Virus record (IMG/VR): IMGVR_UViG_3300045988_098105
Coordinates: 1-64,000 of that record
Reading direction: 5' to 3' (one strand)
DNA length: 64,000 nt
Origin: a virus
Position 1 is the first letter of the stretch. Each line of letters starts with the position of its first letter. The position numbers and the translations under genes are program-made. The notes beneath the pieces are model-generated. The model saw only the letters and a list, made by a program, of their open reading frames with translations. It had not been told where the DNA came from and searched no databases. Positions 5,255 to 46,220 of the stretch are shown here, one piece after another.

Positions 5255-6046
5255 TTAATAAGTGATACCTTCGAAGAATCCGCTCTTTGGTTTCTTCTCT
5301 TTTTTTGCCGGCTTATTTCCAGCGCCTGAACTAGAAAGTGAAGGAGGAATACCCTCGTTTGCGGAAGAGCGAACCTTATTCTGAATCTTCTCGTTTCGGG
5401 CCTGCATAGCCGCCTCGTCGCGCGCCGAAGTGATGTCAGAATCATAGTTGTTGGCATTGTGGAGCATCTTCCAAATATCATCTGAAATATCACCACTCTC
5501 TACCTTGTCGTGAATCTCGTAAATCTGGGACCACATATCCTGTGCATCATCGGGATAGAGCTTCATCAGGCGTTCAAGCGACTTGCGCATGTTGGCAGTA
5601 ACCTTCTCGGTAGCCTCGTTCTGTTCAGCCACGTCCTCGTTGTGCTTGGCGAGAATCTCAGCGAGTTTCTTGCCGCCTTCGGGATCATCAAGCAACGTCT
5701 TTACATCAATACCCAAGCGAGCCATCGCATCAAACGGATTGTCGTCCGGATTTTTCTCCATATCCATCGCCAGAGCAGCGAGCCACTTGTGCTTATCGAA
5801 TACTTTAGATAATGCCTTACCGCTCTGTTCGTACTGTCCGAGCAAATCAGCATCATCATTCATTGCCGCATAACGAGCTTCCTTGTCTTCGAAGTCGATG
5901 TCAGAATGGCGATTAGAGAAGCGCTTGGAGAAAGCTGTACGATTAGGGCGCTCATCTACAGACGTTTCATCCGTAGCAGCCTCAGCAGGTGGAGCCTGTT
6001 GAGCACCACCTTCCTCATTCATCTGTGCTAATTCTTCTTTTGTCAT
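5255..6046 (-). CDS. putative scaffolding protein (264 aa)
   Basis: Track ORF 5255..6226 trimmed to ATG 6046 (MTKEELAQMNEEGG), because the late promoter motif lies upstream of it. The protein is acidic and helix-prone with a Lys-rich C-terminus (KPAKKEKKPKSGFFEGITY), and it sits directly upstream of the capsid gene. Confidence 0.45.
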   Translation of the reverse strand: MTKEELAQMNEEGGAQQAPPAEAATDETSVDERPNRTAFSKRFSNRHSDIDFEDKEARYAAMNDDADLLGQYEQSGKALSKVFDKHKWLAALAMDMEKNPDDNPFDAMARLGIDVKTLLDDPEGGKKLAEILAKHNEDVAEQNEATEKVTANMRKSLERLMKLYPDDAQDMWSQIYEIHDKVESGDISDDIWKMLHNANNYDSDITSARDEAAMQARNEKIQNKVRSSANEGIPPSLSSSGAGNKPAKKEKKPKSGFFEGITY

Positions 6047-6073: not shown

Positions 6074-6115
6074 CAAAAATGCAAATAATTTGAAGAAGTT
6101 TTGCCGTGCTCCAAC
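6074..6115 (-). promoter_or_regulatory. late-promoter candidate for the capsid/tail operon
   Basis: The reverse complement of 6100..6115 is GTTGGAGCACGGCAAA, then an 18-nt spacer, then CATTTTTG (rc of 6074..6081). The ATG at 6046 lies 27 nt further on. Confidence 0.55.
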
Positions 6116-6132
6116 CTTGCGCTTGGTGGTTG

Positions 6133-6174
6133 GTTGGAACACGGCAAAGAAAGCCATGTTTTTGTCTATTTTTG
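6133..6174 (+). promoter_or_regulatory. late-promoter candidate for the portal/terminase operon
   Basis: GTTGGAACACGGCAAA at 6133..6148, an 18-nt spacer, then TATTTTTG at 6167..6174 (TAnnTTTG). It forms an inverted repeat with the copy at 6100..6115. Confidence 0.6.
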
Positions 6175-6189
6175 CGCCTATAATTAATA

Positions 6190-8220
6190 ATGTATAAGAA
6201 AATGGTAAAGGCAAGAATACTGACACTTAGCAAAGTGATGCCTCAACATAAGTATGACTCGGTTAAGGCTCGCAAGCGAAGACAAGAACACGGCAAGGAC
6301 GAGGAGTTACTCAGCCGATGCAGAAATGCTTGGAATAACCTGAGCGGTGTGCGAGAAACGAGGGCGAGAACGATGCGCTACTGCATGGGCGACCAATGGA
6401 GCGACACCATCAGAGTATACCATCATGGTTACTGGGAGGAAATGACGGAGCGCACCTATATGGAGAAGCGCAACCAGACACCTATGAGCAACAACATCAT
6501 GGTGAGCATACTGGAATCTATTGCCGGTCTTTATGCCAAGCAGGGAACAGAACCGGTATGCTTTGCCAGAGACAGCGACTCCCGACAACTGAGCGACATG
6601 ATGAGTGCCACGATGCAATGCAACTGGCAGACAACGTACATGCAAGATGTGCTGAACCACGCTATTAAAGACTACCTGATGGGCGGTCAGATGTTTGTCA
6701 GAGAGAGTTGGGAGGCGAAGGAGCTTGAAATGCCCGACTCATGGACAGATGCGATGGAACCCGACCACATGTTTTTTGAATGCGGCAGCGACCCTCGGCA
6801 CAACGACGTGAGTCTTATCGGAGTGCTGCATGACGTGAGCCGAGAAGACTTGTATCAGAAATTTGCCAAAAAGGAATATGGGCTTACAGAAGATGATCTG
6901 AATGCTATCTTTGATATTTATCCTTCGGACGATAACAGCTACGGCTATGAGTTTAACGAAGAGAAGGCGTTGGAGAATCTCAGTTTTGACCATAGCAACA
7001 AGGGAAGACATTACTCTAGAGTGATTGAGGTGTGGACCACGGAAACCAAACCAATGCTGCAATGCTTTGACCCTATTGCTCAAAATGTAAATGATGCTTA
7101 TTTTAGGGTAGATCGTAATGATACGGCTATGATACAAAAGCTGATAGATTTAAACAATAGGCGTAAAGAGCAGTATGACGAGGCTGGTGTGCCGGAGGAA
7201 GATAGGGCGTATATCACCAGCGAAGATACTTCCAGTAAGTACTGGTATTATACCTACATGGCTCCAGACGGAACTATCCTCTGCCAGGGCGAAACTCCAT
7301 ACGACTATAAGAGCCATCCTTTCACGATGAAACTCTATCCGTATATCAACGGAGAGATTCATCCATTCCTTGCCAACATCATAGACCAACAGCGATACAT
7401 CAACCGACTGATTGTGATGAACGACATGGCTATCAGGAGCAGTTTCAAGGGATTCAAGATGATTCCTACAAATGTGCTTAACGGCAGGACACCAGAACAG
7501 TTTATGGAAGAGGCGGTAGAGTATGACGGATGGATATTCTACAAGCCATCGGTGAAGACACCGAATGTAAAGCCAGAAATTATTACATCGAATGCCGTGA
7601 ACATCGGTACGAATGAACTCTTGCAGATAGAGCTGAACCTGATTAGAGAGGTTACCAACGTGAGCGGTGCTTTGCAGGGTAAGACCCCATCGGCAGGAAC
7701 TTCGGCAGCCAGATATGCACAGGAAAGTCAGAATGCAACCACGTCTCTGTATACCATCCTTGCCGACATGGACGTGTTCACGGAGAAGCTGGCAACCAAG
7801 AAGTGCATGACTATACAGCAGTATTACGAAGACGGAAGAAGGGTTTACGACCGGAACTTCAATACGGTTTACAAGTACGACCGCCTTTCGGCAAGAGATA
7901 TTCACTTCAAGATCAGCATCAAGAATGCAGCAGCTACGGCAGCCTTCAACACGATGCAAAACGATACGCTTGACAAGCTTCTTGATATGGGCGGTATCAA
8001 CATCATCCAGTATCTACAGAACCTCAACGCACCATTTGCAGACAAGTTGCTTGCCAGCGTACAGGAGCAGCAGGCTCAGCTTGAACAGATGTATCAGCAG
8101 CAACAGGCAATGGCTATGCAGCAAGGCGGTGGTCAGGTAGAAAACGGAATTGTGCAGGGTGCAGACCAGAATGCGGTAGCACAGGCACAGAGTGCATTAG
8201 GATATAACAGAGCAGCATAA
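6190..8220 (+). CDS. putative portal protein (676 aa)
   Basis: First large gene of the operon that also contains the terminase. The size is right and it has a Gln-rich C-terminal tail (EQQAQLEQMYQQQQAMAMQQGGGQ). ATG 6202 is an equally good start, because it gives the same 27-nt box-to-ATG distance as the other late operons. Confidence 0.6.
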   Translation: MYKKMVKARILTLSKVMPQHKYDSVKARKRRQEHGKDEELLSRCRNAWNNLSGVRETRARTMRYCMGDQWSDTIRVYHHGYWEEMTERTYMEKRNQTPMSNNIMVSILESIAGLYAKQGTEPVCFARDSDSRQLSDMMSATMQCNWQTTYMQDVLNHAIKDYLMGGQMFVRESWEAKELEMPDSWTDAMEPDHMFFECGSDPRHNDVSLIGVLHDVSREDLYQKFAKKEYGLTEDDLNAIFDIYPSDDNSYGYEFNEEKALENLSFDHSNKGRHYSRVIEVWTTETKPMLQCFDPIAQNVNDAYFRVDRNDTAMIQKLIDLNNRRKEQYDEAGVPEEDRAYITSEDTSSKYWYYTYMAPDGTILCQGETPYDYKSHPFTMKLYPYINGEIHPFLANIIDQQRYINRLIVMNDMAIRSSFKGFKMIPTNVLNGRTPEQFMEEAVEYDGWIFYKPSVKTPNVKPEIITSNAVNIGTNELLQIELNLIREVTNVSGALQGKTPSAGTSAARYAQESQNATTSLYTILADMDVFTEKLATKKCMTIQQYYEDGRRVYDRNFNTVYKYDRLSARDIHFKISIKNAAATAAFNTMQNDTLDKLLDMGGINIIQYLQNLNAPFADKLLASVQEQQAQLEQMYQQQQAMAMQQGGGQVENGIVQGADQNAVAQAQSALGYNRAA

Positions 8221-9520: not shown

Positions 9521-10129
9521 ATGGAGTTCAATAAATTACATCCAACACATTTTATCCGAGAGAGAGGATGGAAGCCCGAGCCAAATCCTTTCTTGCCGAA
9601 GCCACGAAGAGCAGGGCACGGCTATTGGGATAAACACATCTTTATCTATGCCACACAACTCTGGTATGATATAGATGCAAATACCAACATGGTAGGACGA
9701 GCAAGACGGAACATGAAGGATGCGCAAGGCGAAGACATTCCGACAAACGAGAACGATAAGGAACGTCCACTTTTCTACCGATGGTTTGACAAGTATATTA
9801 ATAAGGTGGAAGCGAATCTGTCTGCCTATGTAATGAAACCAGAAGGAAGGGTAAGAGATAATGCCCTGAAAGAATGGGATGAGAAGGAGATATGGCTGAA
9901 ATTTCCCGACTACTGGGATGATACCAAATATGATGCACTCGTCAAGCTGATACACGACTATATCGTGACCGGTGCGCTATACGAATACTTTATGCGCACA
10001 TTGACAAGCAAGGACCCTCTGACGATAGACCAGATGAACCAACTGGACGAACTGGAGATAGACATCATAGACTGCGCCAACTCTACCAAGCCGGGCAGCA
10101 TGATTCATACTCTGAAACCCTTCGGATAA
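9521..10129 (+). CDS. hypothetical protein (202 aa)
   Basis: Track ORF that starts 1 nt after the preceding stop. Confidence 0.55.
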   Translation: MEFNKLHPTHFIRERGWKPEPNPFLPKPRRAGHGYWDKHIFIYATQLWYDIDANTNMVGRARRNMKDAQGEDIPTNENDKERPLFYRWFDKYINKVEANLSAYVMKPEGRVRDNALKEWDEKEIWLKFPDYWDDTKYDALVKLIHDYIVTGALYEYFMRTLTSKDPLTIDQMNQLDELEIDIIDCANSTKPGSMIHTLKPFG

Positions 10130-10144: not shown

Positions 10145-10558
10145 ATGGAAGATTTTGAAATGGATGGATTTAAGTCTGTAAGGGAGATACAGAAAGAGAA
10201 GAAGGAGAAGGTAAAGAAACTTCTCCCTGCAAGGAAGAGTGCCCAAAAGGAATATATACGTGACTGGCTAGCAAGGAGCCAAGAGCAGTTTGAGGATTGT
10301 ATGAACCAACTGGCAGAGTATGATCCTAAGACATACGTCACCATCTACAAAGACCTTACCAAGCACATGATACCAAAGCAGACAGAAGTAAGCGTTACCC
10401 ACGGAATAGATGCAGACTTCAAGCAGCTTATGGCACTCGGTATGACTACCGTAGAGGATGAAGACGAGGCAGACGTACTGGATATAAGCAAAGCACCCGA
10501 GATACAGGATGCAGATTTTGAGGAACTAAACGATTTGACGGATGGCTCTAGTAACTGA
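10145..10558 (+). CDS. hypothetical protein, possible small terminase subunit (137 aa)
   Basis: Basic N-terminus and acidic C-terminus, overlapping the TerL start by 17 nt. The function is guessed from position only. Confidence 0.4.
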   Translation: MEDFEMDGFKSVREIQKEKKEKVKKLLPARKSAQKEYIRDWLARSQEQFEDCMNQLAEYDPKTYVTIYKDLTKHMIPKQTEVSVTHGIDADFKQLMALGMTTVEDEDEADVLDISKAPEIQDADFEELNDLTDGSSN

Positions 10559-12659
10559 ACAGGAAATAGATAATCTCGTAGCGGAAAATCAGAAGCGATA
10601 CGATGAGGTTTATGGCACCTACGACCCTATGACGGGCGAAGGTTGCTATAACTTTGAGCATCGTGTGAAGATAGAGCTATCCGATTTCTTCATTCCTAAG
10701 ATGTGGGTTCCGAAGAAGACTGCCAAATCTGTTCTGTTCAGAGGTCTGAGAAAGATGGGTAGCCTGAAAGACTACATCAACTATGTGTTGCACCAGAAGG
10801 ATGATGCCCAGCATTTCCAGATGCTTACCTTTGCCATCTGTAGAGTGAGGTTCATGGAAGACCCCGAGTTTGCCCTATACGTGACCGATAAGATTGAGGA
10901 CAAGAAGACCGGTAAGATGATTCCTTTCAAGCTGAACTATCCTCAGAGAAAGCTACTGAAAATTATGGAAGACCTGCGGAATGCCCACAAACCGGTGTTC
11001 GTGGTTATTCTGAAGGCACGTCAGTGGGGCGGCTCTACCCTATCACAGCTTTATATCAAATGGATTCAGGACTATAGGCGCGATGGTTGGAATGCTATTG
11101 TGCTTGCCCAACAGAAGAATACCGCCAAGAAGATTAAGGCCATGTACCGAAAAGCTTTGGAGCGGCAACCGGGGTGGACCGTGGGGCATCAGGGCGCAAA
11201 ACTCCAGTTCTCGCCATACGAAAATTCTCCAGACGACTTCCAAGTAACGGATGGAGTGAAGGCAATCAGACGAAGTACGCTGACCGTAGCATCCTTCGAG
11301 AACTTCGATTCGGTGCGTGGTAGTAACTTCCACTGCGCCCACTATTCGGAGGTGGCCTATTGGAAGAAGACGCCAGAGCATGATCCTGAGGGTGTGATTT
11401 CTTCTATATCCGGTGGTATCGACCCATTGGAAGACAACGTGGAGATATTCGAGAGTACCGGTAGAGGTAATTCTGGCTTCTTCTACGACAAGTGCCAGTT
11501 GGCAATGGACCCAAAGAATAATGATGCTTATTCGTTCCTCTTTATTCCTTGTTTCTTCATCGAAAAGGATATGACTCCTGTAGAGAACAGAAGAGCATTT
11601 GCCAAGTGGCTTTTGCAGAACAGAGACCGAAGCACCTGTCCGAAGGGCTATCGTGAGACCGGAAAGTTCTTCTGGCGAATGTGGCAGAAGGGTGCTTGCT
11701 TTGAGGCGATAGAATGGTACAGAAACTACAGAAACAAGTTTACCACCCATGCGGCATGTGCTACCGAGGCTCCTATTGATGAGGAAGATGCGTTCAGAAA
11801 CTCTGGCAGGCTGGTATTCAATCCTTATTCTATAGACGACATGCAGGCTTTGTATAAGCAAGATCCTAAGTTTACTGCCGACATCGTGGTGAACATCAGC
11901 GTGAAGGATGATAACACCATTCCGAACTCGAAGGTGAAGCTGAGAGACGATGGCGAGGGAGACTTGAAGATTTGGGCTGTGCCAAACTGCCTGCAAGTGG
12001 AGAACAGATATTTGGTGAGCGTGGATATTGGCGGTAAGAGTACGACATCGGACTATACCGTTATGACCGTGATAGACCGATTCGGTATGATTCCTACCGT
12101 GAAGGGCAAGCCAAAGGTGGTAGCGAGATACAGGGGACATGTCAGGCATGATAAGCTGGCATGGATGGCTGCTGCCCTAGCCCATTATTATGATGATGCG
12201 CTGCTGGTGATAGAGAGTAATACTGCCGACCGAGAGAAGAACAATAACACGGAGGGTGATCACTTTCTGACCATTCTGCAGGAGATTGCCGACTACTACG
12301 ATAATCTGTATCAGAGAACGAGCAGTTCGGAGAATGTGGAAGATAACGTACTGGCGAAGTATGGTTTCCAAACCAACAAGCTGACGAAGCAGCAGGTGAT
12401 TGATAACTTGGAAGAGTTTATTGATGATAATCTGTATGAGGAGCCAGACAAGGAAATGTATCATGAGTTGCGCATCTATGAGCGACATGATGATGGCAGT
12501 TTGGGTAACATCGTTGGTAACGGAAACCATGATGATGTGGTAATGAGTACCGGCATCGGTCTCTTTGTGAGTCTTACGGACATGGAGAAGCCTAGCTGGA
12601 AGAAAGCGGAAAGAAGAAGCCGTGGTGGCGATGGTGTTCATACGGCGGCGAAAATTTAA
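10542..12659 (+). CDS. terL: terminase large subunit
   Basis: ATPase Walker A-like VVILKARQWGGSTLS. The nuclease half carries SVDIGGKSTTSDYTVMTVIDR and GNGNHDDVVMSTGIGL, typical of the TerL RNaseH-fold nuclease. 705 aa. Confidence 0.85.
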   Translation: MALVTEQEIDNLVAENQKRYDEVYGTYDPMTGEGCYNFEHRVKIELSDFFIPKMWVPKKTAKSVLFRGLRKMGSLKDYINYVLHQKDDAQHFQMLTFAICRVRFMEDPEFALYVTDKIEDKKTGKMIPFKLNYPQRKLLKIMEDLRNAHKPVFVVILKARQWGGSTLSQLYIKWIQDYRRDGWNAIVLAQQKNTAKKIKAMYRKALERQPGWTVGHQGAKLQFSPYENSPDDFQVTDGVKAIRRSTLTVASFENFDSVRGSNFHCAHYSEVAYWKKTPEHDPEGVISSISGGIDPLEDNVEIFESTGRGNSGFFYDKCQLAMDPKNNDAYSFLFIPCFFIEKDMTPVENRRAFAKWLLQNRDRSTCPKGYRETGKFFWRMWQKGACFEAIEWYRNYRNKFTTHAACATEAPIDEEDAFRNSGRLVFNPYSIDDMQALYKQDPKFTADIVVNISVKDDNTIPNSKVKLRDDGEGDLKIWAVPNCLQVENRYLVSVDIGGKSTTSDYTVMTVIDRFGMIPTVKGKPKVVARYRGHVRHDKLAWMAAALAHYYDDALLVIESNTADREKNNNTEGDHFLTILQEIADYYDNLYQRTSSSENVEDNVLAKYGFQTNKLTKQQVIDNLEEFIDDNLYEEPDKEMYHELRIYERHDDGSLGNIVGNGNHDDVVMSTGIGLFVSLTDMEKPSWKKAERRSRGGDGVHTAAKI

Positions 12660-12683: not shown

Positions 12684-15437
12684 ATGGAAAGAAACTTAGA
12701 AAGACAAACTTTGAGCTTTAGCAAGGGCATGACGAATGTACCTAGCGACTTGCTTTCAGATGATTCTGAACTGCTGGAGAGTGACGGATTTATCTTTAAG
12801 GATGGGGAAATGAAGGCGGTGCAGAAGGGGGTACGTATCGGCAACGTTCCTTATAAGATAATGTACGTTCACAAGATGGCTGACTATGAGAATATCATTG
12901 CTTATGATGGGACGGCGAATATATACTGGTATACAAAAGATACCAGTGGGAACATCGCAAGCCCTGCTGATGGGGTAACGAAAAGTTTCAATGTAGGAAC
13001 GGTTTATGATGTAAAAAGTATTGGTAATACTTTGGTTTGCGCCACTAGCGAAGGACTTCACTATTTACTTTTCAAAGGAAACAAATATAAAGATTTGGGT
13101 AAAGATCTGCCTCGTTTAGAATATGATTTTACTTTTGAGCGACCGACGGGCAACTATACCCAGGAAGAAAGCGGAAGAACATTATGTAATGCCGAGAATG
13201 CTATCGAGACAAAACAAGGAGAAAGCTATTTTAATCCATTAAACCATACGTTCATTCAGGCAGGAGGCGTAAAACCCGATGGCAGCGAAACCAAATCATA
13301 TACAATGTTTAGCATTAAGGTATCATCAGATTCAAAATATGAGAATGAGTTTCAAGAAACCATTCAAGGGCATGTAGCGCAAGCAATAAACTGGGCAAAG
13401 AGCAAGAATATGTTTGCTTTTCCTTTCTTTCTAAGATGCGCTTTCCGCATGTTTGATGGTTCATACTGCAGAATAACTACGCCTATAGTATGCTATCCAA
13501 CAGTAAATAAAAACTGTATGTTCAGTTCTGCTGTTTTTGATAGTACACACAACACCTATATGGATTTACATCAGATGGGGGGTGCAGGAAGTATGTTCTA
13601 CTTTATAGAATACAGGGAGCTGCTATTCAGATTTGAATCAATATCTAACGACTGGAGCGACATCATCAAAGAGATAGTTGTTTTTGCGTCAGATCAAGTA
13701 GTGCCATTCTATATAGATAAAGGTTGGCATTTTGAAAGTCCGAATGGCTTGCATAAGAAATATGCTTATGCTAATTTTGGGTATAAAACTTACGAAGAAA
13801 AGCTCTTGAATTATGACGTGGATGGCTCGACAAGCACAGATACAACTAAAGAACCATATACCAGAGCGGTACATGACGAACTTTTACCAAAATACAAGAG
13901 TGATGATCAGATTATATCCGAATTACTCTCGAAAACAGTTTTTTACAAATTATTCACAGTTCCAATAAGTGGCAGTCATATTGGTGGTAGCAATTATCAT
14001 TACACCGTTACCGGCAAGGGTGGAGAACCGGCATTTATTAGTGATGGGACATTGGAGAACCTTCTGGAGCAGGAGCAACTGAATGTGGATGATTACTACG
14101 GATGGGCTTCTTTGAGTGCCGAATCCATTTACAATTACAATGGCAGACTGAATCTTATTGGAACAAAACGAACTCCTTTTGCAGGTTTCGCCAAATTTGT
14201 AGGAAAAGACAGGTTTGAGGATGACGCATTTTTGATGTATACGCACATCGTTTCAGATAAATGTGATACATGGATTGAAAGAAGTGTTACTGCCGATGAA
14301 GATTTTCTGCAAGGATGGCTGTTTTATCCAGACCCGAATGCTACGGAGGTTATTTTTTACTCTGCAGGGAAATATATCAGAATTAATCTAAAGGCACATC
14401 CTAGATTAAATGGTGCTTATACGTTTCCTGTACTTCCACCAAATAAGCCAAAGAAGTTTACAGAAATCAGTGAAAGCGAATTGCTAAAGATTGTAACAAG
14501 CGTAAATGATAAAGAAAATTTGAACTCTCAGATTTTCACTTCTTTAGTCAACAATCCATTTGTATTTGAGGCATCGGGAGATAATACAGTTGGAACCGGA
14601 AAGATACTCGGAATTATTGCCAACACAGAGGCGGTAAGCCAAGGTCAGTTCGGTCAATACCCATTGATGGTATTTACGGACGAAGGTATCTACGGCTTGT
14701 CGGTTAACTCTGAAGGTCTCTATAGCAGAGCCTATCCAATATCAAGAGAGGTATGTAATGAGGATTCGCCACTGGTGCCGACGGACAGGCTTGTATTCTT
14801 TGCTTCAAAGAAAGGGCTGATGGCGGCAAGCGGTGGAAGCGTAGCCTGTATGAGCGAACAGATGAGGGGAAGAGTACCAAGGAACTTTGCGACCTTCGGG
14901 GAAAGCAAGTTCCTGGATTTTCTGAAAGACTGCTTTATCGCCTACGATTACAGAGACTCCATATTGAGAATATTCAGCAAGGGGAAATCATACCAATACA
15001 TATATAATATGGTAGACAAGACCTTCTCTATGGTGAATAGCGGCATAGAGGCACAGGCGGTAGTGAATGATTATCCGGATAATCTGATACAAGATACTGA
15101 AGGAAACGTCTATTCACTCACATCAAAACCAGACATCAATGAAGATACAGAAAGCTATAGCGGCTCATTTACTACCAGACCTTTGAAGATGGGCGGCAGC
15201 ATGACGTTGAAATCGCTGAGAGCGGTGAAGCATCTGTTTGATTCGGACGAAGGTACGATTGGGCTGGAGATATACGGAAGTAACGACTGCAAGCACTGGT
15301 GCAAGCTGCCAAGCTTGGCTGGCAAGCCTTGGAAATATTTTACTTTCAAGTATACGCTGCAGAACTTCAAGGCTGCTGATTCCTTTGCTGGCAGTATAGT
15401 AGAGGTACAAAGCAGACGAGAAGACAAAATGAGATAA
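12684..15437 (+). CDS. large virion-associated protein of unknown function (917 aa)
   Basis: Last gene of the portal/terminase operon. It is a long clean ORF with only short shadow ORFs opposite. No motif recognised. Confidence 0.6.
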   Translation: MERNLERQTLSFSKGMTNVPSDLLSDDSELLESDGFIFKDGEMKAVQKGVRIGNVPYKIMYVHKMADYENIIAYDGTANIYWYTKDTSGNIASPADGVTKSFNVGTVYDVKSIGNTLVCATSEGLHYLLFKGNKYKDLGKDLPRLEYDFTFERPTGNYTQEESGRTLCNAENAIETKQGESYFNPLNHTFIQAGGVKPDGSETKSYTMFSIKVSSDSKYENEFQETIQGHVAQAINWAKSKNMFAFPFFLRCAFRMFDGSYCRITTPIVCYPTVNKNCMFSSAVFDSTHNTYMDLHQMGGAGSMFYFIEYRELLFRFESISNDWSDIIKEIVVFASDQVVPFYIDKGWHFESPNGLHKKYAYANFGYKTYEEKLLNYDVDGSTSTDTTKEPYTRAVHDELLPKYKSDDQIISELLSKTVFYKLFTVPISGSHIGGSNYHYTVTGKGGEPAFISDGTLENLLEQEQLNVDDYYGWASLSAESIYNYNGRLNLIGTKRTPFAGFAKFVGKDRFEDDAFLMYTHIVSDKCDTWIERSVTADEDFLQGWLFYPDPNATEVIFYSAGKYIRINLKAHPRLNGAYTFPVLPPNKPKKFTEISESELLKIVTSVNDKENLNSQIFTSLVNNPFVFEASGDNTVGTGKILGIIANTEAVSQGQFGQYPLMVFTDEGIYGLSVNSEGLYSRAYPISREVCNEDSPLVPTDRLVFFASKKGLMAASGGSVACMSEQMRGRVPRNFATFGESKFLDFLKDCFIAYDYRDSILRIFSKGKSYQYIYNMVDKTFSMVNSGIEAQAVVNDYPDNLIQDTEGNVYSLTSKPDINEDTESYSGSFTTRPLKMGGSMTLKSLRAVKHLFDSDEGTIGLEIYGSNDCKHWCKLPSLAGKPWKYFTFKYTLQNFKAADSFAGSIVEVQSRREDKMR

Positions 15438-15557: not shown

Positions 15558-16040
15558 TTATCTGATTTTGATATTATTTATGCAATACGCTACGATGTAG
15601 CCTAATACGAAGCACCAAAGATGCAGAAGTCCGTTGACATTCGGCACGGCCATGGTGCAAATAATGAATGGCATCGCTTTCTTTAATGCCTCTTTCCATC
15701 GCCCTGTCCTACCCCACATCAAACCAAAAGATGAGAACAGGAAACCGGAAAGCCCCATTGTAGGCTGACTAACATACATGGGCAGCAGACTAGCGACATA
15801 GGCAACAGCCAGAGAAGTGACTGGTTTCATATCGTTCTTTATCTGCCAAAGCACCAGAAGGTTTACGGCAAGATGAAAGCCGTTGACATGGAAGAAGCTA
15901 TACAGGATATGATTCTGCCAAGGACAACCGGGATAGAAACCGACGTGCCAAGTACACAGAACGAGGCAGATGATGCTAAGCACCAGCTTTGTTCGAAAGT
16001 TTCTTCTTACGAAGGTCCATTTCTCTGTAATTTTTTCCAT
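15558..16040 (-). CDS. rhomboid-family intramembrane serine protease (160 aa)
   Basis: Start placed at ATG 16040 (MEKITEKW). There are six hydrophobic segments. HLAVN matches the HxxxN motif of TM2, MGLSGFLFSSFG matches the catalytic GxSG of TM4, and LLHLWCFVLGYIV supplies the catalytic His of TM6. Compare E. coli GlpG. Confidence 0.75.
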   Translation of the reverse strand: MEKITEKWTFVRRNFRTKLVLSIICLVLCTWHVGFYPGCPWQNHILYSFFHVNGFHLAVNLLVLWQIKNDMKPVTSLAVAYVASLLPMYVSQPTMGLSGFLFSSFGLMWGRTGRWKEALKKAMPFIICTMAVPNVNGLLHLWCFVLGYIVAYCINNIKIR

Positions 16041-16431
16041 ACTTCTTATAGTAAGCGAAAATAAACTTGAGATTACTTGGCTGGATAAAGAACTCGGGAG
16101 CAGGCTCAGAAACAAGGAACTGGCAGATAAACCATAAAGATTTGCCTACGAACTCCTTTCGCTGCGTCATTTCGTTCATCCTGTTGAACAGCGTATAGTA
16201 TAACTTCTGCCGAATCGGCTTCATACTATCCACCTTAGAGAAGTCGCCGACTGCCATTCTGCGGAGAATATCCCAAGCTCTTTTGGGAGAAACGTAGTAT
16301 CTCGGAGCAGGAGAATGGACCACCTTTTCCCAAGCCTCCTGTTGGGAATGGCAATTAGGAGCTATCTCCCGATACGCCTTCATCAGATCATCCCTCTGTC
16401 TGTCAATCAATTCGTAATTTGCTCTTGCCAT
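15976..16431 (-). CDS. hypothetical protein (151 aa), co-oriented with and overlapping the rhomboid gene
   Basis: Track ORF with its own -7 box upstream. It overlaps the rhomboid start by 65 nt. Confidence 0.55.
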   Translation of the reverse strand: MARANYELIDRQRDDLMKAYREIAPNCHSQQEAWEKVVHSPAPRYYVSPKRAWDILRRMAVGDFSKVDSMKPIRQKLYYTLFNRMNEMTQRKEFVGKSLWFICQFLVSEPAPEFFIQPSNLKFIFAYYKKYGKNYREMDLRKKKLSNKAGA

Positions 16432-16454
16432 ATAAATGCTGCATTAAGATGCTG

Positions 16455-16462
16455 CAAATATA
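16455..16462 (-). promoter_or_regulatory. -7 box TATATTTG (Bacteroidota type) for the rhomboid cassette
   Basis: The + strand reads CAAATATA, so the reverse complement is TATATTTG, 24 nt upstream of ATG 16431. Confidence 0.4.
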
Positions 16463-16632
16463 CATATTATTTAGAATATGACCAAATAAGTGCATAAAGA
16501 TTTAAATAAGTTTAATATTAGGCTGGCTTTCATGGCATTACGAAAGAAAAAGCTTAATTTTGCAACAAAATGAGATGTAAATCTCAGAAACAGTTAGCAA
16601 AATGTAAAACCGAACCATAAAATCGTAACAAA

Positions 16633-16803: not shown

Positions 16804-17119
16804 ACCAACAGTTGTAGATACCAATCTCAACGGGAACTGCATCATCTGGATTTATGTACTGGCATACATTTATATGCCACTGACCATGATACCGGTAAGT
16901 TTCTTCTTCAGATACTGCTGGATTTTCCGTATTCCGTTCTTTTATTTTTTCGGTATCAACGCTATCAGACTATACTATCGGCACTGGCTCATCACTCCCG
17001 AGCAGTTGGAGATGCACCATGTGTTTATCATATTCACTTTAATGCTTTACGCTTATGGATTTATCAAAATCGCTCTATCGAATAGCAGAATCTGCCTTTG
17101 GGATGCTAAGAAACGATGA
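16787..17119 (+). CDS. hypothetical aromatic-rich membrane protein (110 aa)
   Basis: Track ORF with about 3 hydrophobic segments rich in F/Y/W/I. It is the only sizeable ORF in an otherwise empty 600-nt stretch. Confidence 0.3.
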   Translation: MGTIPRPTVVDTNLNGNCIIWIYVLAYIYMPLTMIPVSFFFRYCWIFRIPFFYFFGINAIRLYYRHWLITPEQLEMHHVFIIFTLMLYAYGFIKIALSNSRICLWDAKKR

Positions 17120-17516
17120 ATGTGGGTTTACAGAGGAAGAAGAGAGGATTGTGCAGAGGAATCTTCTTTACTGGATGGAAAGGAAGCATCACTTTGACGA
17201 GCAACTGGGCAGAGCCTGCATCGCCAACATTTATTATTTTGATGATGATGTTCACAAGAAGTATGCTCCTTACTTCGGGTTTGATGAGTTGAAGGAGGAC
17301 TATGAAAGGTTATCATGGAACATACCGGACTACAACTTCTGGGATTTTGCGGTAACGATGAATAAGATGTATGCTGACCATATAGACGTGGTGGGCAAAT
17401 GGTCGAAGAACAAAGATACCACTAGAAAAAGGATCTCAGAACTGGCTATCAGTTTTCTCTGTGACGAATCGACAAACCACCCTACAGATAAAATCTGGTG
17501 GTACATGAATAGCTAA
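17055..17516 (+). CDS. hypothetical protein (153 aa)
   Basis: Track ORF with an alternative start at ATG 17103. Confidence 0.5.
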   Translation: MDLSKSLYRIAESAFGMLRNDECGFTEEEERIVQRNLLYWMERKHHFDEQLGRACIANIYYFDDDVHKKYAPYFGFDELKEDYERLSWNIPDYNFWDFAVTMNKMYADHIDVVGKWSKNKDTTRKRISELAISFLCDESTNHPTDKIWWYMNS

Positions 17517-17558
17517 GTTGGAACACGGCAAAAGCTATTGAAAAGCCTTTTATATTTG
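17517..17558 (+). promoter_or_regulatory. late-promoter candidate for the lysis cassette
   Basis: GTTGGAACACGGCAAA at 17517..17532, an 18-nt spacer, then TATATTTG at 17551..17558. ATG 17585 lies 26 nt further on. Confidence 0.6.
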
Positions 17559-17584: not shown

Positions 17585-18028
17585 ATGGCAGAGATAGTAC
17601 ATACATTTTTACAAGAGCACCTGTACAGATCGGCATTGGTTATTGCCATCTGCATGGGTGCTCTTATCATTTCTATGGGCGTGGACCTATTCTTCGGAAT
17701 CAAAAAAGCAAAGGAGAACGGACTGGCTACGACAAGTACAGGATTCAAGAAGACTTGCGACAAGGCGAGGAAATACTTCTCTCCCTTCATGGTAACGGTC
17801 TGCATAGACCTGATAGCCTGTACGGTTCTCCCCTTCCCTGTCTTCTCTATGATATGGGCAGGATATTGCGTGTTCTGTGAATTTGTAAGCGTAAGAGAGA
17901 AGAGCTGGCAGAAGGCTGAGATACGGAAGCAGGAGAAGACGGTAAGCATTCTTCTGGAGAACAAAGAAGACTTGGCTAGGGCTTTTGCTGAGATTATGAA
18001 GGAGCAGGGAAAGGAGGAGAAGAAATGA
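17585..18028 (+). CDS. holin-like membrane protein (147 aa)
   Basis: Three hydrophobic segments followed by a charged tail (KEQGKEEKK). It lies immediately upstream of, and overlaps by 4 nt, the endolysin gene. Confidence 0.65.
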   Translation: MAEIVHTFLQEHLYRSALVIAICMGALIISMGVDLFFGIKKAKENGLATTSTGFKKTCDKARKYFSPFMVTVCIDLIACTVLPFPVFSMIWAGYCVFCEFVSVREKSWQKAEIRKQEKTVSILLENKEDLARAFAEIMKEQGKEEKK

Positions 18029-18915: not shown

Positions 18916-19227
18916 ATGGCGAAGATTAGCGAAGAACTGCAGATGATTGATTCGCTCCTGATGGAATTTCATGAGCGGATTCAGAGCGGAAGATGCTTAA
19001 CTAACAAACAGCAAAATGCTTTCATGTTAGATTTTCTGCACCGCATCGCCAATAAGGACGAACCTATCAGTAAGGCTGAGGCATGCGGCTACGTTCATGT
19101 TTCCAGGGCTACCTTTGACCGGCTTGTGAAAGAAGGCAGGCTTCCAAAGGGTAAAAAGCGGAAAGGATGGACCGAGCTAGTTTGGTACGAAAAGGATTTA
19201 GATGAATATATAGATAGATTGGTATAG
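18916..19227 (+). CDS. HTH DNA-binding protein (excisionase/MerR-like HTH_17 type)
   Basis: ISKAEACGYVHVSRATFDRLVKEGRLPKGKK...W matches the short winged-HTH of excisionase-family proteins. Confidence 0.5.
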   Translation: MAKISEELQMIDSLLMEFHERIQSGRCLTNKQQNAFMLDFLHRIANKDEPISKAEACGYVHVSRATFDRLVKEGRLPKGKKRKGWTELVWYEKDLDEYIDRLV

Positions 19228-20031: not shown

Positions 20032-21051
20032 TTATAGCTTGATTTTCTCATTGATAGATATTTCTTTCTTGTCTAAGCCAGAGACCTTGATAAACTCCTC
20101 TAAGGTGAGGTCGCAATATTCGTCTATCCAGTCGGCTATATAATATAGGTTGCGTGAACCATTAATCATACCAAAAAGAATTGGGTCTGACTTCTTACGT
20201 CTGATTCTCTCCTCTTCCTCCTTCGTCAGCTTGTATGATTTCAGGTCTGGGTCGTAGTATAGGACACAATAATTGTCGAATACAAGAACAGAGTCTGCCT
20301 TTGTTTTCTTCTCATAGACTTCATCTGGAATGTTATGTGTAAAGTTCTTGATGTAATCAAGTCTCACTCCCTTTTCTGTCTTCTTAACGAAAGATACAAG
20401 CTGTTCCTCGGAAATCTTGTAATTAAACCCCTCTGCCTGAAGTATGCTCTCATACTTGTTGTTGAAGATTTGGGCAGAGAGTTGGTCGGCAAGGGCGGTC
20501 TGTCCCATATCGTTGGCTCTTTTAAGGGCTATCATATATGGCTTAATACGTTCTACGTAGTTCTTAGCACTCTCCTTAGAGGTTAGCTTTACCTGCTCGA
20601 AAAACTTGATAATATCTAGTTCATAAACAGTCTCTTCTTTCTTCTCCCGCTTCTCGTTGGTGAAGACTCTGATTAACTTCTTGATGATGTCAGGTTCCTT
20701 TTTCTTACTTTCTCTTGATGAAACGCTGTCACCTATAGGGGTAAGCATATTTTTGAATTTATCGGAATCGTTATAGACTCTGTCGGCAAGAGACTTACCA
20801 ATATAGATATTGAAGTCTTTCTTATCTAGATTGATGAAATCTAGAATTGATATTTGCTGGCGGTTGTCGTTGGCTGTTGGTGAAAATGGTTCTAAAGCCT
20901 CGCCTAAGGAACTACCACTTGCTTTTTTAGAAAGAGAATCCTTGTTGTCTTCTGTGATTTTGCTCCACTTAGGGAGATTTCTGTCAATCAGAAAATTCTC
21001 AGTAAAAATTCTGAGATAGCTTTCGCTACGGTCTAAAATATTACTTTTCAT
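20032..21051 (-). CDS. hypothetical protein (339 aa)
   Basis: Track ORF, Lys/Glu-rich. No motif recognised. Confidence 0.6.
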   Translation of the reverse strand: MKSNILDRSESYLRIFTENFLIDRNLPKWSKITEDNKDSLSKKASGSSLGEALEPFSPTANDNRQQISILDFINLDKKDFNIYIGKSLADRVYNDSDKFKNMLTPIGDSVSSRESKKKEPDIIKKLIRVFTNEKREKKEETVYELDIIKFFEQVKLTSKESAKNYVERIKPYMIALKRANDMGQTALADQLSAQIFNNKYESILQAEGFNYKISEEQLVSFVKKTEKGVRLDYIKNFTHNIPDEVYEKKTKADSVLVFDNYCVLYYDPDLKSYKLTKEEEERIRRKKSDPILFGMINGSRNLYYIADWIDEYCDLTLEEFIKVSGLDKKEISINEKIKL

Positions 21052-29035: not shown

Positions 29036-29560
29036 CTAAGCCTTATCTGTTGATCCTAAACCGCTACGAGTGCCGGTTACTTTGCCAAGTTCCAAGTTTG
29101 TATCTGGAACGTAAGTGAAGGCGCCTTGGCAGATGCGTAGGGAATAAGGGATGATAAACTTGAAACCGAGCATACGCATGATGCGATGCTTTAACCTCCA
29201 TCTGCCCGACTTGACGATAGCATGGACTTCTTCACCATAGCCGCAATCAATCAAACCAAGAATCACGTCAAGATTTGCTCTGACCTTGCATAGATAGATG
29301 CCATGTAGGAGCCATGAAGGGCAATAAACATCTAACAACATTCCTTTGCCCGACATGCCACTACGTGGCTGAATCAGCAATTTCATATTTGATGGAAGTT
29401 GTATTTTAAACCCGAGCGGAACGTAAAAGCGTTTGTTTGGAATTACTTCCGTATCCTTGCTGCAATGAAGGTCGTAAGCGGCATCCGTTTCATACGACTT
29501 CGTAGGGAAACACCCATGTGTTACCAATTCTACATTGATTTTTGTTACTGATATACTCAT
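29036..29560 (-). CDS. dut: dUTPase (trimeric type) with extra loops
   Basis: Start at ATG 29560 (MSISVTK). Motifs are AAYDL, PRSGMSGKG, GLIDCGYGEE, RICQ and C-terminal TRSGLGSTD. The spacers between motifs 2-3 and 3-4 look longer than usual. Confidence 0.7.
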   Translation of the reverse strand: MSISVTKINVELVTHGCFPTKSYETDAAYDLHCSKDTEVIPNKRFYVPLGFKIQLPSNMKLLIQPRSGMSGKGMLLDVYCPSWLLHGIYLCKVRANLDVILGLIDCGYGEEVHAIVKSGRWRLKHRIMRMLGFKFIIPYSLRICQGAFTYVPDTNLELGKVTGTRSGLGSTDKA

Positions 29561-32088: not shown

Positions 32089-32137
32089 TATATTTATGGT
32101 TAATTTACGTATTTACACATTTATAAACACTAGCAGT

Positions 32138-32500
32138 ATGGAAGGATTAAGAGATAGAATCAACGAGATAAGAGACCATTACAGGCTGACTAACAGAGGG
32201 TTTGCAGACGCTATCGGGGCAAAACCTGCTGCTACGAACAACTATTTGAACGGCACAAAGGAGCCTTCGATGGAGTTTATAGACAGAATACTGACTACAT
32301 ACGTAGACATTTCAGCAGATTGGCTACTTTGTGGCAGAGGCAGTATGTTTTACGATGCAGACAAGCAGACGGACGAAAAATTGCTGAAAGAACTAGCAGA
32401 AACAAAAGTAAAGTTGCTAGTACAGGAAGGAGTGGTTAAGGAGTTAAAGCAAATCATCAGCGAGAAGATTGCTGAAAGAGACAAAAGCCTTGTTGGCTGA
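32138..32500 (+). CDS. CI-like HTH repressor (XRE family) with coiled-coil tail
   Basis: Start at ATG 32138 (MEGLRDRINEIRDHY). LTNRGFADAIGAKPAATNNYLNGTKEPS is an HTH_3 pattern, and ADWLLCGRGSM is typical of Bacteroidota phage repressors. Convergent with int. Confidence 0.7.
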   Translation: MEGLRDRINEIRDHYRLTNRGFADAIGAKPAATNNYLNGTKEPSMEFIDRILTTYVDISADWLLCGRGSMFYDADKQTDEKLLKELAETKVKLLVQEGVVKELKQIISEKIAERDKSLVG

Positions 32501-33678: not shown

Positions 33679-34266
33679 TTTGGTAACATAAATTTTGAAG
33701 GTTGGTATCATTTTTGTAACACTCACCTTCGTTTAACATTTTTCCAAATTTGGCTAAATCCCTCTAAATTAGAGTTTTACGGACATTATGTGTTTAAACT
33801 GGTTTAAAACGAGTTTAAGAAATCAATATTTATGACATAACACTTTTAAAAACTAAAAGCAGCTAACATAAATATCTGATATTCAGTACTTTATATTAGC
33901 TGCTTTAAACAAATTTTTCTTACTAAATGTAGCATTTTTATGCTTAAAAAGTGATTCCGTTGGGGTCACAACCAATTTCTCACAAAACTGTCTATATCAG
34001 CCACTTATCTTTCGTGTGCAAAGATAGTGATAACATTTTTATAACACAAATTTTTAATTACTTTTTAACTATATTTTGCAAAAGTTGAAATTTGGTGGTT
34101 TCAAATACTTTTCTTACTTTTGCACTCGTCAATACGGATTTTCACCTCTATCTTGTTGATACAACATTTGTGAAACTTCAATACTTTCAATAGGTATTAC
34201 AATATAGGGGATTGATTAAACCGATAGAAGAGGTGCGGTTTTTTCTTTCCCCAATTTTTGTTTGCT

Positions 34267-37050: not shown

Positions 37051-37078
37051 AAAATCAGAGCCTAGTGCTCTGCTTTTT
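37051..37078 (+). terminator. bidirectional intrinsic terminator
   Basis: AAAAT-CAGAGC-CTAGT-GCTCTG-CTTTTT. The loop contains the stop codon of the convergent minus-strand gene. Confidence 0.65.
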
Positions 37079-37478
37079 CCTTGTCTTCACGTTCTCGTTT
37101 CTCGGCTATAGCCTGTCTGAGCCACGCGCCTTTGTTGCGTCCTAGGGATTCACAAAACTCAAACGTTTCTTCGTTTACATGCGTCACAACCCTGTAGATG
37201 AGGGCAGCTGCGCCCTTGCTCGGTGCTCCGGCTCGCTCTCTGCGGCCACCCCACCCTGGATGCTGACTGACCTTGCATTGCTGAACCTTGCCCTTGCTAT
37301 TGATGCGGAACTTCATTTTCAGCCGGTCATTTACCCAAACTTCAGCAATTACCGCATCGGGCGTCTGCTGAAGGGTAGATTTGGCAATACCGATAAGATA
37401 GGATTTATCCTTGAAGAAGGTCTCTGTCTCATCGAGTATCGCCCAATCATCGTAGATTATGATTCTTGCCTTTTCCAT
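37062..37478 (-). CDS. hypothetical protein with possible C-terminal ribbon-helix-helix (138 aa)
   Basis: GGRRERAGAPSKGAAALIYRVVTHVNEETFEFCESLGRNKGAWLRQAIAEK looks like a strand-helix-helix arrangement. Confidence 0.5.
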   Translation of the reverse strand: MEKARIIIYDDWAILDETETFFKDKSYLIGIAKSTLQQTPDAVIAEVWVNDRLKMKFRINSKGKVQQCKVSQHPGWGGRRERAGAPSKGAAALIYRVVTHVNEETFEFCESLGRNKGAWLRQAIAEKREREDKEKAEH

Positions 37479-43704: not shown

Positions 43705-43858
43705 ATGCTTTATTGTTACACTGCAAAATTTTTATGTAGTATTTTAACACTTCAAGCCTACATTTTAACACAATTAACATAATGTTACACGAAAACCGGC
43801 TAATTAGTGTTTTGATATTACTTTTCTTAAAAGATTTGGTAGTATCAAAATATTTATG

Positions 43859-43866
43859 TAACTTTG
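43859..43866 (+). promoter_or_regulatory. -7 box TAACTTTG for the second HTH gene
   Basis: 33 nt upstream of ATG 43899. Confidence 0.4.
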
Positions 43867-43898
43867 CAGCCAATATTATAACATTACATTGGATATTT

Positions 43899-44195
43899 AT
43901 GGATATAGCTAAGATAATAAAACGAAAGGGGTTTACACAAAAACAAGTGTCTGACGCCCTCGGCATTAATAGGGTAAACCTAAATAATATGATTAATGGC
44001 AACCCAACGTATAAGACTATGCGTCAAGTTGCCGACGTGATAGGTGCGAACGTAAGTGAGTTCTTCGAGGATGAAGTAAAGAGACCTAACGAGGACTTTG
44101 CTAGCTATGTGCGCTACAAAGGCATCCATTATACTGCCGATACATTGGAGGAGTTCTTCAAGCAAGTTGATGAGTTAAGGATTATAGCGAAATGA
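43899..44195 (+). CDS. XRE-family HTH regulator (98 aa)
   Basis: Start at ATG 43899. FTQKQVSDALGINRVNLNNMINGNPTYKTMRQVADVIGANVSEFF is a clear HTH_3 pattern. Confidence 0.7.
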   Translation: MDIAKIIKRKGFTQKQVSDALGINRVNLNNMINGNPTYKTMRQVADVIGANVSEFFEDEVKRPNEDFASYVRYKGIHYTADTLEEFFKQVDELRIIAK

Positions 44196-45141: not shown

Positions 45142-45183
45142 GTTGGAACATGGCAAAACCGAACTTCAAATATTATATATTTG
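45142..45183 (+). promoter_or_regulatory. late-promoter candidate for the cargo/giant-ORF operon
   Basis: GTTGGAACATGGCAAA at 45142..45157, an 18-nt spacer, then TATATTTG at 45176..45183. ATG 45211 lies 27 nt further on. Confidence 0.6.
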
Positions 45184-45210: not shown

Positions 45211-45975
45211 ATGACGGAAATATTATCAAAAATCCCAAAGCATTTGACCTCTTGCCCTGTACTCACGGACAAAAAGGAGTGGATATTGGGTGCTGCTGCC
45301 TTGGCTCTTGGCGTTGGCTCTTCTCTCTTCGGTGCTAACAAGGCTAAGAAGGCAGCTAGAAGGGCACAAGCGGAGAACACGTACAGAACGAACGCTGAGA
45401 AGGCTTGGTACGACAAGAACTACAACACGGACTACCTTGACACAAAAGCAGGTCAGAACCTCATGAGGAGGGCGAAGGAAGTACAGGACGAGTACGTCCG
45501 CAAGGCTGATGGTGCTGCTGCCGTTGGCGGTGGAACTGCTGCAAGTGTGGCAATGGCGAAGGAGGCAGCTAACAAGGCTATGGGCGACACGATAGCCAAC
45601 GTAGCGGCACAGGACACGGCTCGCAAGCAACATGTGGAGGATGCTCACCTTCAGAACACTCAGCAGTTGTCTAGAGAGCGTCAGCAAATCGAGCAGCAGA
45701 AGGCGCAGAACACTAGCGATGCGGCTCAAAATGCGTCAAATGCTATGTTCAATTTCGGTGTGAACCAATTGGGGTCAGAACTCGAAAGTGCTAAGGTGGT
45801 GAAAACCAACACTTTAGACTCAAACGGAAAGCCAATTGATAACACAATTGTAACACAACAAGACAAAACCGCTCATTCTGCTGCCACAGACCACTTGGCT
45901 GAGAGCATGATGTCTCCCGAGGAGAAGAACCAATACCGCTTGAAGAAGGCAGTTGGCTTGTCGGGGCTTGGGTAG
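45211..45975 (+). CDS. hypothetical virion-internal-like protein with one TM helix and Gln/Ala-rich region (254 aa)
   Basis: Track ORF 45070..45975 trimmed to ATG 45211 because the promoter lies inside the upstream part. WILGAAALALGVGSSLFGA is a hydrophobic helix. Confidence 0.55.
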   Translation: MTEILSKIPKHLTSCPVLTDKKEWILGAAALALGVGSSLFGANKAKKAARRAQAENTYRTNAEKAWYDKNYNTDYLDTKAGQNLMRRAKEVQDEYVRKADGAAAVGGGTAASVAMAKEAANKAMGDTIANVAAQDTARKQHVEDAHLQNTQQLSRERQQIEQQKAQNTSDAAQNASNAMFNFGVNQLGSELESAKVVKTNTLDSNGKPIDNTIVTQQDKTAHSAATDHLAESMMSPEEKNQYRLKKAVGLSGLG

Positions 45976-46168: not shown

Positions 46169-46220
46169 TGAATTTTCGGGAAGTGTTAATGAAGTTAAAA
46201 CATTAAAACAAAAATAGATT

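Follow-up and report, generated by a model that had tools for sequence, protein, structure and literature searches.

The 64,000-nucleotide stretch of viral DNA considered here (IMG/VR record IMGVR_UViG_3300045988_098105, positions 1 to 64,000; called the window below) raises the question of how a temperate phage of gut Bacteroidota turns on its late genes, a matter about which, to our knowledge, almost nothing is known. An element of 16 nucleotides (nt), GTTGGAACACGGCAAA, is found in front of four operons of the window, and in each case it is followed after exactly 18 nt by a box resembling the -7 element of the host promoters. We propose, with a probability of about 0.7, that this element is a recognition module upstream of the -7 box in a class of late promoters specific to the phage, which would be activated by a phage protein together with the host RNA polymerase.

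The element occurs without mismatch at 6133-6148(+) in promoter P1, which precedes the portal/terminase operon, and at 17517-17532(+) in promoter P3 of the lysis operon. Copies with one mismatch are located at 6100-6115(-), GTTGGAGCACGGCAAA, in promoter P2 of the scaffold/capsid/tail operon, and at 45142-45157(+), GTTGGAACATGGCAAA, in promoter P4 of the cargo operon. The corresponding boxes are TATTTTTG at 6167-6174(+), TATATTTG at 17551-17558(+), CATTTTTG at 6074-6081(-) and again TATATTTG at 45176-45183(+). The boxes correspond to the -7 element TAnnTTTG (TAHHTTTG), in the form of TATTTTTG or TATATTTG at three promoters and of CATTTTTG at P2. The distance from the box to the start codon is also nearly constant at 26-27 nt, being 27 nt for P1 (portal ATG at 6202), P2 (minus-strand ATG at 6046) and P4 (ATG at 45211), and 26 nt for P3 (ATG at 17585). 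The elements of P1 and P2 form an inverted pair between the two divergent structural operons. The four copies, their common spacing and the inverted pair had been described in an earlier note on this DNA, and all were recovered by pattern search. The note had also given a distance of 15 nt at the portal gene; this value has to be corrected to 27 nt, because the upstream ATG at 6190 is out of frame in related clades and the conserved start is ATG 6202.

The arrangement is not expected by chance. The 16-mer alone, with up to three mismatches, has five matches in the window compared with 0.37 expected. The composite pattern GTTGGAACACGGCAAA-N18-YAnnTTTG, with no more than two mismatches, gives exactly the four promoter sites compared with 0.00 expected in 100 shuffles. 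The fifth loose match of the 16-mer, at 29081-29096(-), has three mismatches, lies inside a dUTPase-like gene without a box and is a chance occurrence. An 11-nt partial copy at 6286-6296 does exist, as had been noted, and is probably due to chance as well, because it is inside the portal coding sequence and has no box 18 nt downstream. Window-wide pattern scans also bear out the statement that no copy of the 16-mer precedes early or lysogeny genes. The element is asymmetric, with a symmetry limited to TTG..CAA, and a direct-repeat substructure of the elements with a period of 7-8 nt is not significant (P=0.07).

The position of the element was assigned using the promoter geometry of Flavobacterium johnsoniae, where the -7 box extends from T-12 to G-5 and transcription starts 4-5 nt past the box (PMC6847099). 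In this geometry the 16-mer spans approximately -46 to -31, and the host -33 position (-36 to -33) is filled by the GGCA of the 16-mer. The sequence TTTG was found 17-23 nt upstream of the box at none of the four late promoters, which confirms the idea that the motif stands in place of the host -33 element. Canonical promoters of the form TTTG-N19/20-TAnnTTTG are present elsewhere in the window, at 34026(-), 34115(+), 43704(-) and 43859(+), where they precede early or lysogeny genes, and at 16462(-). A sixth such match, at 46216(-), is antisense within the cargo operon and probably occurs by chance. The leaders at the four late promoters are approximately 21-23 nt long, and short leaders are typical of Bacteroidota promoters (PMC6847099). 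Leaders of this length leave no room for a terminator, which excludes an antitermination design of the Q type.

It is important to compare these promoters with those of related phages. A megablast search with 20 kb of the window against the phage collection gave no close annotated relative. At least 119 stretches of IMG/VR contigs contain the 16-mer without mismatch, and nearly all of them are the same four promoters in close relatives. By genome scan, relatives occur in Segatella copri and Candidatus Segatella violae, and many related viral contigs terminate at the integrase; the phage is a temperate one of the Prevotella/Segatella copri complex. An alignment of close relatives anchored on the coding start and not on the motif shows hardly any variation in the element and the box, whereas the upstream flank and the spacer over its first 7 nt vary freely.

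A different picture is obtained with relatives collected through the portal protein, independently of the motif, at portal identities of 81-99%. The architecture of the divergent portal/scaffold promoter region is kept in all of them, but the 16-nt element itself differs by clade, and the two inverted copies change jointly. The lysis promoter of the same contigs has the same clade-specific variant, in every lineage examined, and the cargo promoter likewise has the variant matching its genome. At P4, the perfect 16-mer is present in 50 of 56 relatives of the same class, and the other classes have their own variant. Within each genome every readable late promoter (three or four per genome) has the version belonging to that lineage, and all four promoters were recovered for the TCGTGGTATCG class. 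Lineages with different elements have portal and terminase genes that are 83-96% identical, and they co-occur in the same metagenome.

Further variants were drawn from contigs that encode diverged homologues of a candidate factor, the product of the gene at 15976-16431(-) discussed below. In total, versions of the element with the same architecture are found in at least 12 related lineages. They include ACGGAAACACGG, (A/G)TGGAAACACGG, TTGGAACACCG, TTGGAATACGA, GTTAAATAACCG, TCGTGGTATCG, TCGTG(C/T)(A/T)ATGGG, TTATAGAACGG, TTGGAACACAA and TTGGAACAC(T/C)A. All variants are located 18 (rarely 19) nt from the box, in one orientation, with a 3' end of (C)AAA. In the distant Bacteroides phages BKO1-TP3 and BS-TP4, whose portal is 35% identical, an unrelated 13-mer is found in the arrangement GTAAAwAGwTAAA-N23-TAnnTTyG. 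It precedes the cargo, portal, scaffold, lysis and structural operons, with 3-4 matches compared with 0.01-0.02 expected. The concerted change of an element at a fixed position is the signature of a trans-acting specificity factor in the same genome. The joint change at the late promoters of each lineage implies that this factor is encoded by the phage and co-evolves with the element, and no other explanation accounts for it as readily.

Other repeats were seen in some of the more distant genomes. The phage BF1-TP2 (L123) has a different arrangement that could not be fitted to the element-N18-box rule: it carries CCATAACGATAAA repeats at about 20816, 42663 and 42690, some of which are inverted relative to each other on either side of the -7 box at the cargo operon. 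In two more distant lineages, L399 (about 13870-14000 and 16140-16280) and L400 (about 13680-13800 and 15935-16070), a 10-nt unit, GGCYYAGNAA, is repeated in arrays before the terminase and before a gene for a protein of approximately 900 amino acid residues; L400 also contains 8-nt ATTCAACA repeats.

These features allow us to propose the following mechanism. The host RNA polymerase with the Bacteroidota primary sigma factor would read the TAnnTTTG -7 box, and the asymmetric element at about -46 to -31, at a fixed distance and orientation, would stand in for the absent TTTG at -33. A phage DNA-binding protein on the element could recruit or reposition the polymerase, replacing the contact between sigma region 4 and the -33 element. 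The structural, lysis and virion-cargo operons would then fire only after this phage protein has been made, and each phage lineage would possess its own specificity of element and protein. The note had put forward a phage-encoded activator or sigma-like reader. The concerted change across lineages supports this proposal, with the refinement that an activator or an appropriator is likelier than a sigma factor because Pfam detects no sigma-like protein among approximately 85 open reading frames.

The factor itself is not evident from annotation. Searches of nearly all open reading frames against Pfam, PHROGs and NCBIfam gave no sigma, Mor/C, Ogr, Q, RinA/ArpU or MotA-like protein, in agreement with the earlier statement that no such factor is annotated in the window. 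The negative result for sigma-70 region 2 and region 4 domains refers to Pfam scans of the approximately 85 reading frames, which very divergent sigma factors could escape. The search was extended by an exclusion test based on the mosaic make-up of the related genomes, in which the factor must be present wherever the architecture is used and must differ whenever the element differs.

Most of the genes examined in this way were rejected. The XRE protein encoded at 43782-44195(+), just upstream of P4, has an identity of only 37-47% among phages with an identical element. The excisionase-like protein with an HTH_17 domain (18916-19227) has almost the same recognition helix across classes with unrelated elements. 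The accessory early genes at 19-29 kb and 34-37 kb are missing in many phages with the same element. The portal, the terminase and the products of 10145-10558, 9521-10129 and 17055-17516 reach identities of 84-96% across different elements. The CI/Cro-like proteins are unlikely, since their own control regions, where they would need operators, lack the element; for these proteins there are few covariation data, and those are biased by retrieval through the integrase.

Some additional observations were made on these genes. The two XRE-type regulators, 43782-44195(+) and 32096-32500(+), are located at separate divergent-promoter regions. The former is hypervariable among otherwise near-identical phages, in the manner of an immunity module, while the latter lies beside the integrase and is conserved within the class. 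The gene 10145-10558(+) overlaps the start of the large terminase gene (TerL), and the identity of its product reaches 94% in pairs of phages whose elements differ. One homologue, 77% identical, is called an ArsR-family regulator by the Joint Genome Institute (JGI). This protein is a likely small-terminase candidate, although its AlphaFold model, with a predicted local distance difference test score (pLDDT) of 58, is too poor for the assignment.

The best candidate for the specificity factor is the product of 15976-16431(-), an orphan basic protein of 151 amino acid residues with a pI (isoelectric point) of 9.8. The note had looked for the factor among the small proteins of the early operons, but this gene is located between the late operons and has its own promoter. 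Among 13 late-region proteins, only this product separates the element classes cleanly. Its identity is at least 97% in pairs with the same element and at most 71% in pairs with different elements, with a Spearman coefficient of -0.94. The core element of the GTTAAATAACCG class is retained with a homologue whose identity to the protein of that class is 80%. With homologues that are 70-75% identical to the protein of the window, TTGGAACAC is likewise retained and only the central dinucleotide is changed. On the basis of this covariation the protein may tentatively be regarded as the cognate factor of the late element, at somewhat less than even odds.

The protein belongs to a highly diversified orphan family which, in the protein search, comprises 119 clusters at 90% identity and has neither a Pfam domain nor a name. 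Matches to the family profile were obtained with gp49 of BKO1-TP3, gp9 of BS-TP4 and gp58 of BF1-TP2, with E-values from 4e-17 to 3e-13. No match was found in Pfam, PHROG-function, NCBIfam or the PDB sequences. The AlphaFold (AF2) model is confident and all-helical, with a pLDDT of 91, and a Foldseek comparison of this model with PDB and BFVD gave no match at E<0.9. The chain consists of two repeats of approximately 67 residues, each with a PAPxYY/FFxxP segment, and the two halves align in register with hhalign (E 4e-5, probability 70%). The two internal repeats of the model could fit an asymmetric site. It is a more doubtful proposal that the family represents a new kind of activator, a single-chain pseudo-dimer of ~67-residue repeats with the segment PAPxYYxxP. 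Such a protein would substitute for recognition of the -33 element by sigma region 4 at Bacteroidota -7 promoters and would exist in dozens of orthogonal specificities, each controlling a whole late regulon.

The candidate gene has a canonical promoter at 16455-16486(-), which consists of TTTG at 16486-16483, a spacer of 20 nt and the box TATATTTG at 16462-16455, 23 nt from the ATG at 16431. Other element classes have kept the same promoter (L401, L404). Because of it the protein can be expressed without the late element, as is required of an activator. The divergent scaffold promoter of BKO1-TP3 and BS-TP4 has its element in overlap with the -33 region of the candidate-gene promoter, and such an overlap would allow autoregulation. 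A palindrome of the type 6-N6-6, CATATTCTAAATAATATG, is present between the -33 and -7 elements of the candidate-gene promoter in the window (16440-16480(-)), and a direct repeat of TGCAGCAT is found just downstream of the promoter box. Both sequences might act as operators and thereby silence the gene in lysogens. A gene for a rhomboid-like membrane protein, located at 15558-16040(-) in the window, directly follows the candidate gene in all relatives, the distant Bacteroides phages among them.

Several points weigh against the proposed mechanism, or against the candidate as its factor, and should be considered together. The late timing, the start sites, the binding, the identity of the factor and the choice of activation rather than repression are deduced from DNA sequence, and the "late" status of the four operons is drawn from their gene content. 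A missing -33 element alone is no proof of dependence on an activator, since the -33 element is weak in general in F. johnsoniae and Bacteroidota promoters can be functional with a weak -33 or none (PMC6847099). The exclusion test could be passed by any fast-evolving and rarely recombining gene, and only about 11 independent element classes are available for the covariation. The candidate protein has no recognizable DNA-binding domain and no structural neighbor in the searches described above. The unregulated-looking promoter of an activator gene would need to be silenced in lysogens, and no established operator was found that explains such silencing. The loci L399 and L400 encode homologues of the candidate, and the element/box design is absent from the intergenic regions read in them. 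In addition, in BKO1-TP3, BS-TP4 and BF1-TP2 the homologue is located two genes upstream of TerL, with only the rhomboid-like gene between them. This arrangement corresponds to a classical small-terminase neighborhood, which makes a small-terminase role a serious alternative for the function of the family. In the window the candidate gene is not adjacent to TerL.

This neighborhood is one of the points in favor of an alternative in which the general mechanism holds and a different phage protein acts as the factor, either the ribbon-helix-helix-like (RHH-like) protein of 138 residues encoded at 37062-37478(-), the last gene of an early operon, or an unrecognised small protein. The candidate would then be a small terminase or have another core function that tracks the lineage; the model of the 10145-10558 product is too poor to give that role to it. 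The RHH-like protein tracks the element class in the few classes tested. Of the 53 loci that are long enough, 52 contain it, its identity is at least 92% within the element class of the window and 53-69% in other classes (four classes being available), and its C-terminus resembles a ribbon-helix-helix when judged by eye. However, the distant phages that share the promoter architecture have no homologue of it (E>2). A scan of the genome collection with this protein gave five loci only. A 96% identical copy of its class-B homologue is located in the chromosome of S. copri F3-48 (L395, 9992-10411), with no other phage genes or elements within 10 kb. The locus L396 has the ACGGAAACACGG element, yet its RHH-like homologue is only 64% identical to the usual version of that class, and the lineage with the element closest to that of the window has the most divergent RHH strand. 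As for the candidate as a small terminase, Foldseek matched its model to none of the solved small terminases, though these proteins (TerS) are diverse, and its gene is preceded by a canonical -33/-7 promoter, in contrast to the element-bearing late operons. A different factor is considered unlikely, if still the strongest of the alternatives.

The other alternatives change the mechanism itself. A phage alternative sigma factor might read the element and the box directly, with its region 4 on the 16-mer. A sigma factor would indeed impose a fixed spacing and orientation on two promoter elements, the GGAAC in the element of the window resembles the -35 core of extracytoplasmic function (ECF) sigma factors, and very divergent phage sigma factors such as T4 gp55 escape profile searches. 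This explanation is nevertheless improbable: no Sigma70_r2, Sigma70_r4 or other sigma domain is present in the ~85 reading frames scanned, the downstream element is the host-type TAnnTTTG and not a new -10 element, and the contiguous 16-bp element is far longer than a -35 hexamer. The GGAAC is also missing from most other element classes and, at 26 nt from the box, is too far for ECF spacing. Still less probable is an operator for a repressor, of the prophage or of late genes, placed on -7-only promoters that are intrinsically active and would be held off until late. Such promoters are conceivable in Bacteroidota, which can tolerate a weak or absent -33 element (PMC6847099), and the CI-like XRE protein 32096-32500 is also class-specific in a limited set. 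However, the immunity and switch regions at 31.9-32.1 kb and 43.4-43.9 kb, where a CI/Cro-type protein must bind, contain no copy of the element, and the second XRE protein (43782-44195) varies among identical-element phages as described above. The exact N18 phasing and the single orientation in every lineage are not needed for steric repression, and the asymmetry of the element is unlike typical dimeric repressor operators. The probability is close to negligible that a host protein binds the element, or that the element has a role outside transcription, for instance in packaging or recombination. The hosts of different lineages, species of the Segatella copri complex, could differ in such a factor, but the near-identity of portal and terminase between lineages with different elements, and their occurrence in one metagenome, do not agree with this. 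Unlike a pac or att site, the element also recurs four or five times per genome, each time in base-exact register with a -7 box and the start of an operon, and Rfam found no RNA family anywhere in the window. An upstream recognition module for a phage activator is the explanation that we prefer.

The operon identities given in the note are confirmed by profile matches for the portal, terminase, tail fibre, amidase and the domains of the giant open reading frame. The operon of P1 (6202-15437(+)) contains the portal (6202-8220), the large terminase (10542-12659) and a structural protein of 917 residues, all by profile search. The operon of P2 (805-6046(-)) contains scaffold-like, capsid-like, adaptor and tail fibre genes, assigned by the same method. 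The lysis operon of P3 (17585-19227(+)) includes an amidase, and its last gene is the excisionase-like HTH_17 gene at 18916-19227(+). This gene is strongly conserved across lineages and, from its position in the operon, is probably expressed late.

The cargo operon of P4 extends from 45211 to position 64000(+). It contains a gene for a protein resembling an internal virion protein and a giant open reading frame from 48568 that continues past the end of the window. The encoded protein has more than 5144 residues, with ddrB-ParB, AAA_34 and Helicase_C_4 domains, the last being the C-terminus of a Strawberry-notch-type helicase. Homologues of 5000-5600 residues are present in BKO1-TP3, BS-TP4 and metagenomic relatives, and the one in the Bacteroides phage BKO1-TP3 carries the annotation DarB-like. 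The giant reading frame encodes a DarB-like polyvalent protein and is the last gene of the P4 late operon. DarB of phage P1 is the product of a late operon and is packaged in the virion, which makes late expression of the P4 operon plausible. At 20032-21051(-) there is a reading frame of 339 residues with a transposase-like PHROG match. It is absent in all 80 related loci that cover the region and is probably a recent insertion specific to this genome.

Searches of the open-access literature gave no description of such late promoters or of their activator in Bacteroidota phages, nor of the 15976-16431 family. The rule [lineage element]-N18-TAnnTTTG predicts the starts of late operons in a large and abundant group of Segatella/Prevotella and Bacteroides prophages. 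The 15976-16431 protein is a directly testable candidate regulator from an uncharacterised family. The at least 12 element variants with their matched candidate proteins could, if orthogonal, provide inducible promoter/activator parts for the engineering of Bacteroidota, where such parts are scarce. The system also bears on how the unusual Bacteroidota sigma factor can be redirected when its -33 contact is replaced.

Finally, the late promoters can be compared with known systems. At all four sites the -7 box agrees with the consensus of the housekeeping promoters read by the Bacteroidota sigma ABfr, but the -33 TTTG, 19-21 nt upstream, is missing. ECF-sigma promoters differ in that the GGAAC would be expected after a spacer of approximately 16-17 nt and not 26 nt from the box, and no conserved element of the CGT type is present. 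Lambda Q is an antiterminator that works from a single constitutive promoter, with a pause site and a terminator downstream, and several specificity types of Q and its site exist. The lambdoid systems are similar in having a single phage regulator for lysis and morphogenesis genes and in their specificity types, but the phage studied here has four separate promoters with leaders of ~21-23 nt.

The temperate phages P2, 186 and P4, with Ogr, B and Delta, and phage P1, with Lpa, have approximately four late operons, each with one activator site upstream of the -10 element, as in the window. Phage P1 shares in addition a giant DarB protein that is produced from a late operon and packaged. The sites of the Ogr type are TGT-N12-ACA dyads near -55, bound by zinc-finger proteins, and the Lpa site is a 9-bp palindrome near -22. 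In the window, however, no TGT-N12-ACA dyad is located upstream of the boxes, and Pfam detects no Ogr_Delta domain.

The closest parallels are found in phages Mu and T4. The C and Mor proteins of Mu are small phage activators with a C-terminal helix-turn-helix; several late operons share a dyad-symmetric, dimer-bound site which overlaps the -35 region of a promoter with a good -10 but no usable -35 element. The element of the window, at about -46 to -31, likewise overlaps the -35 region of promoters without a -33 element and is common to the late operons. It differs in being asymmetric, in the lack of a Mor-family match in Pfam and in its core promoter, which is the Bacteroidota -7 element TAnnTTTG. 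The T4 MotA box is an asymmetric site of 9 bp at -30 that is read by a monomeric two-domain protein, and the co-factor AsiA is required to remodel region 4 of sigma. In the T4 middle promoters, too, the element of the host -10 type is intact and the -35 element has given way to a phage-specific box at a constant distance from it. However, no homologue of MotA or AsiA was detected with Pfam or PHROG, the phage is temperate and the genes are late and not middle, and MotA is not known for specificity variants as numerous as those found here. By analogy, the late-promoter class most likely works like Mu C/Mor or T4 MotA, yet belongs to neither family.

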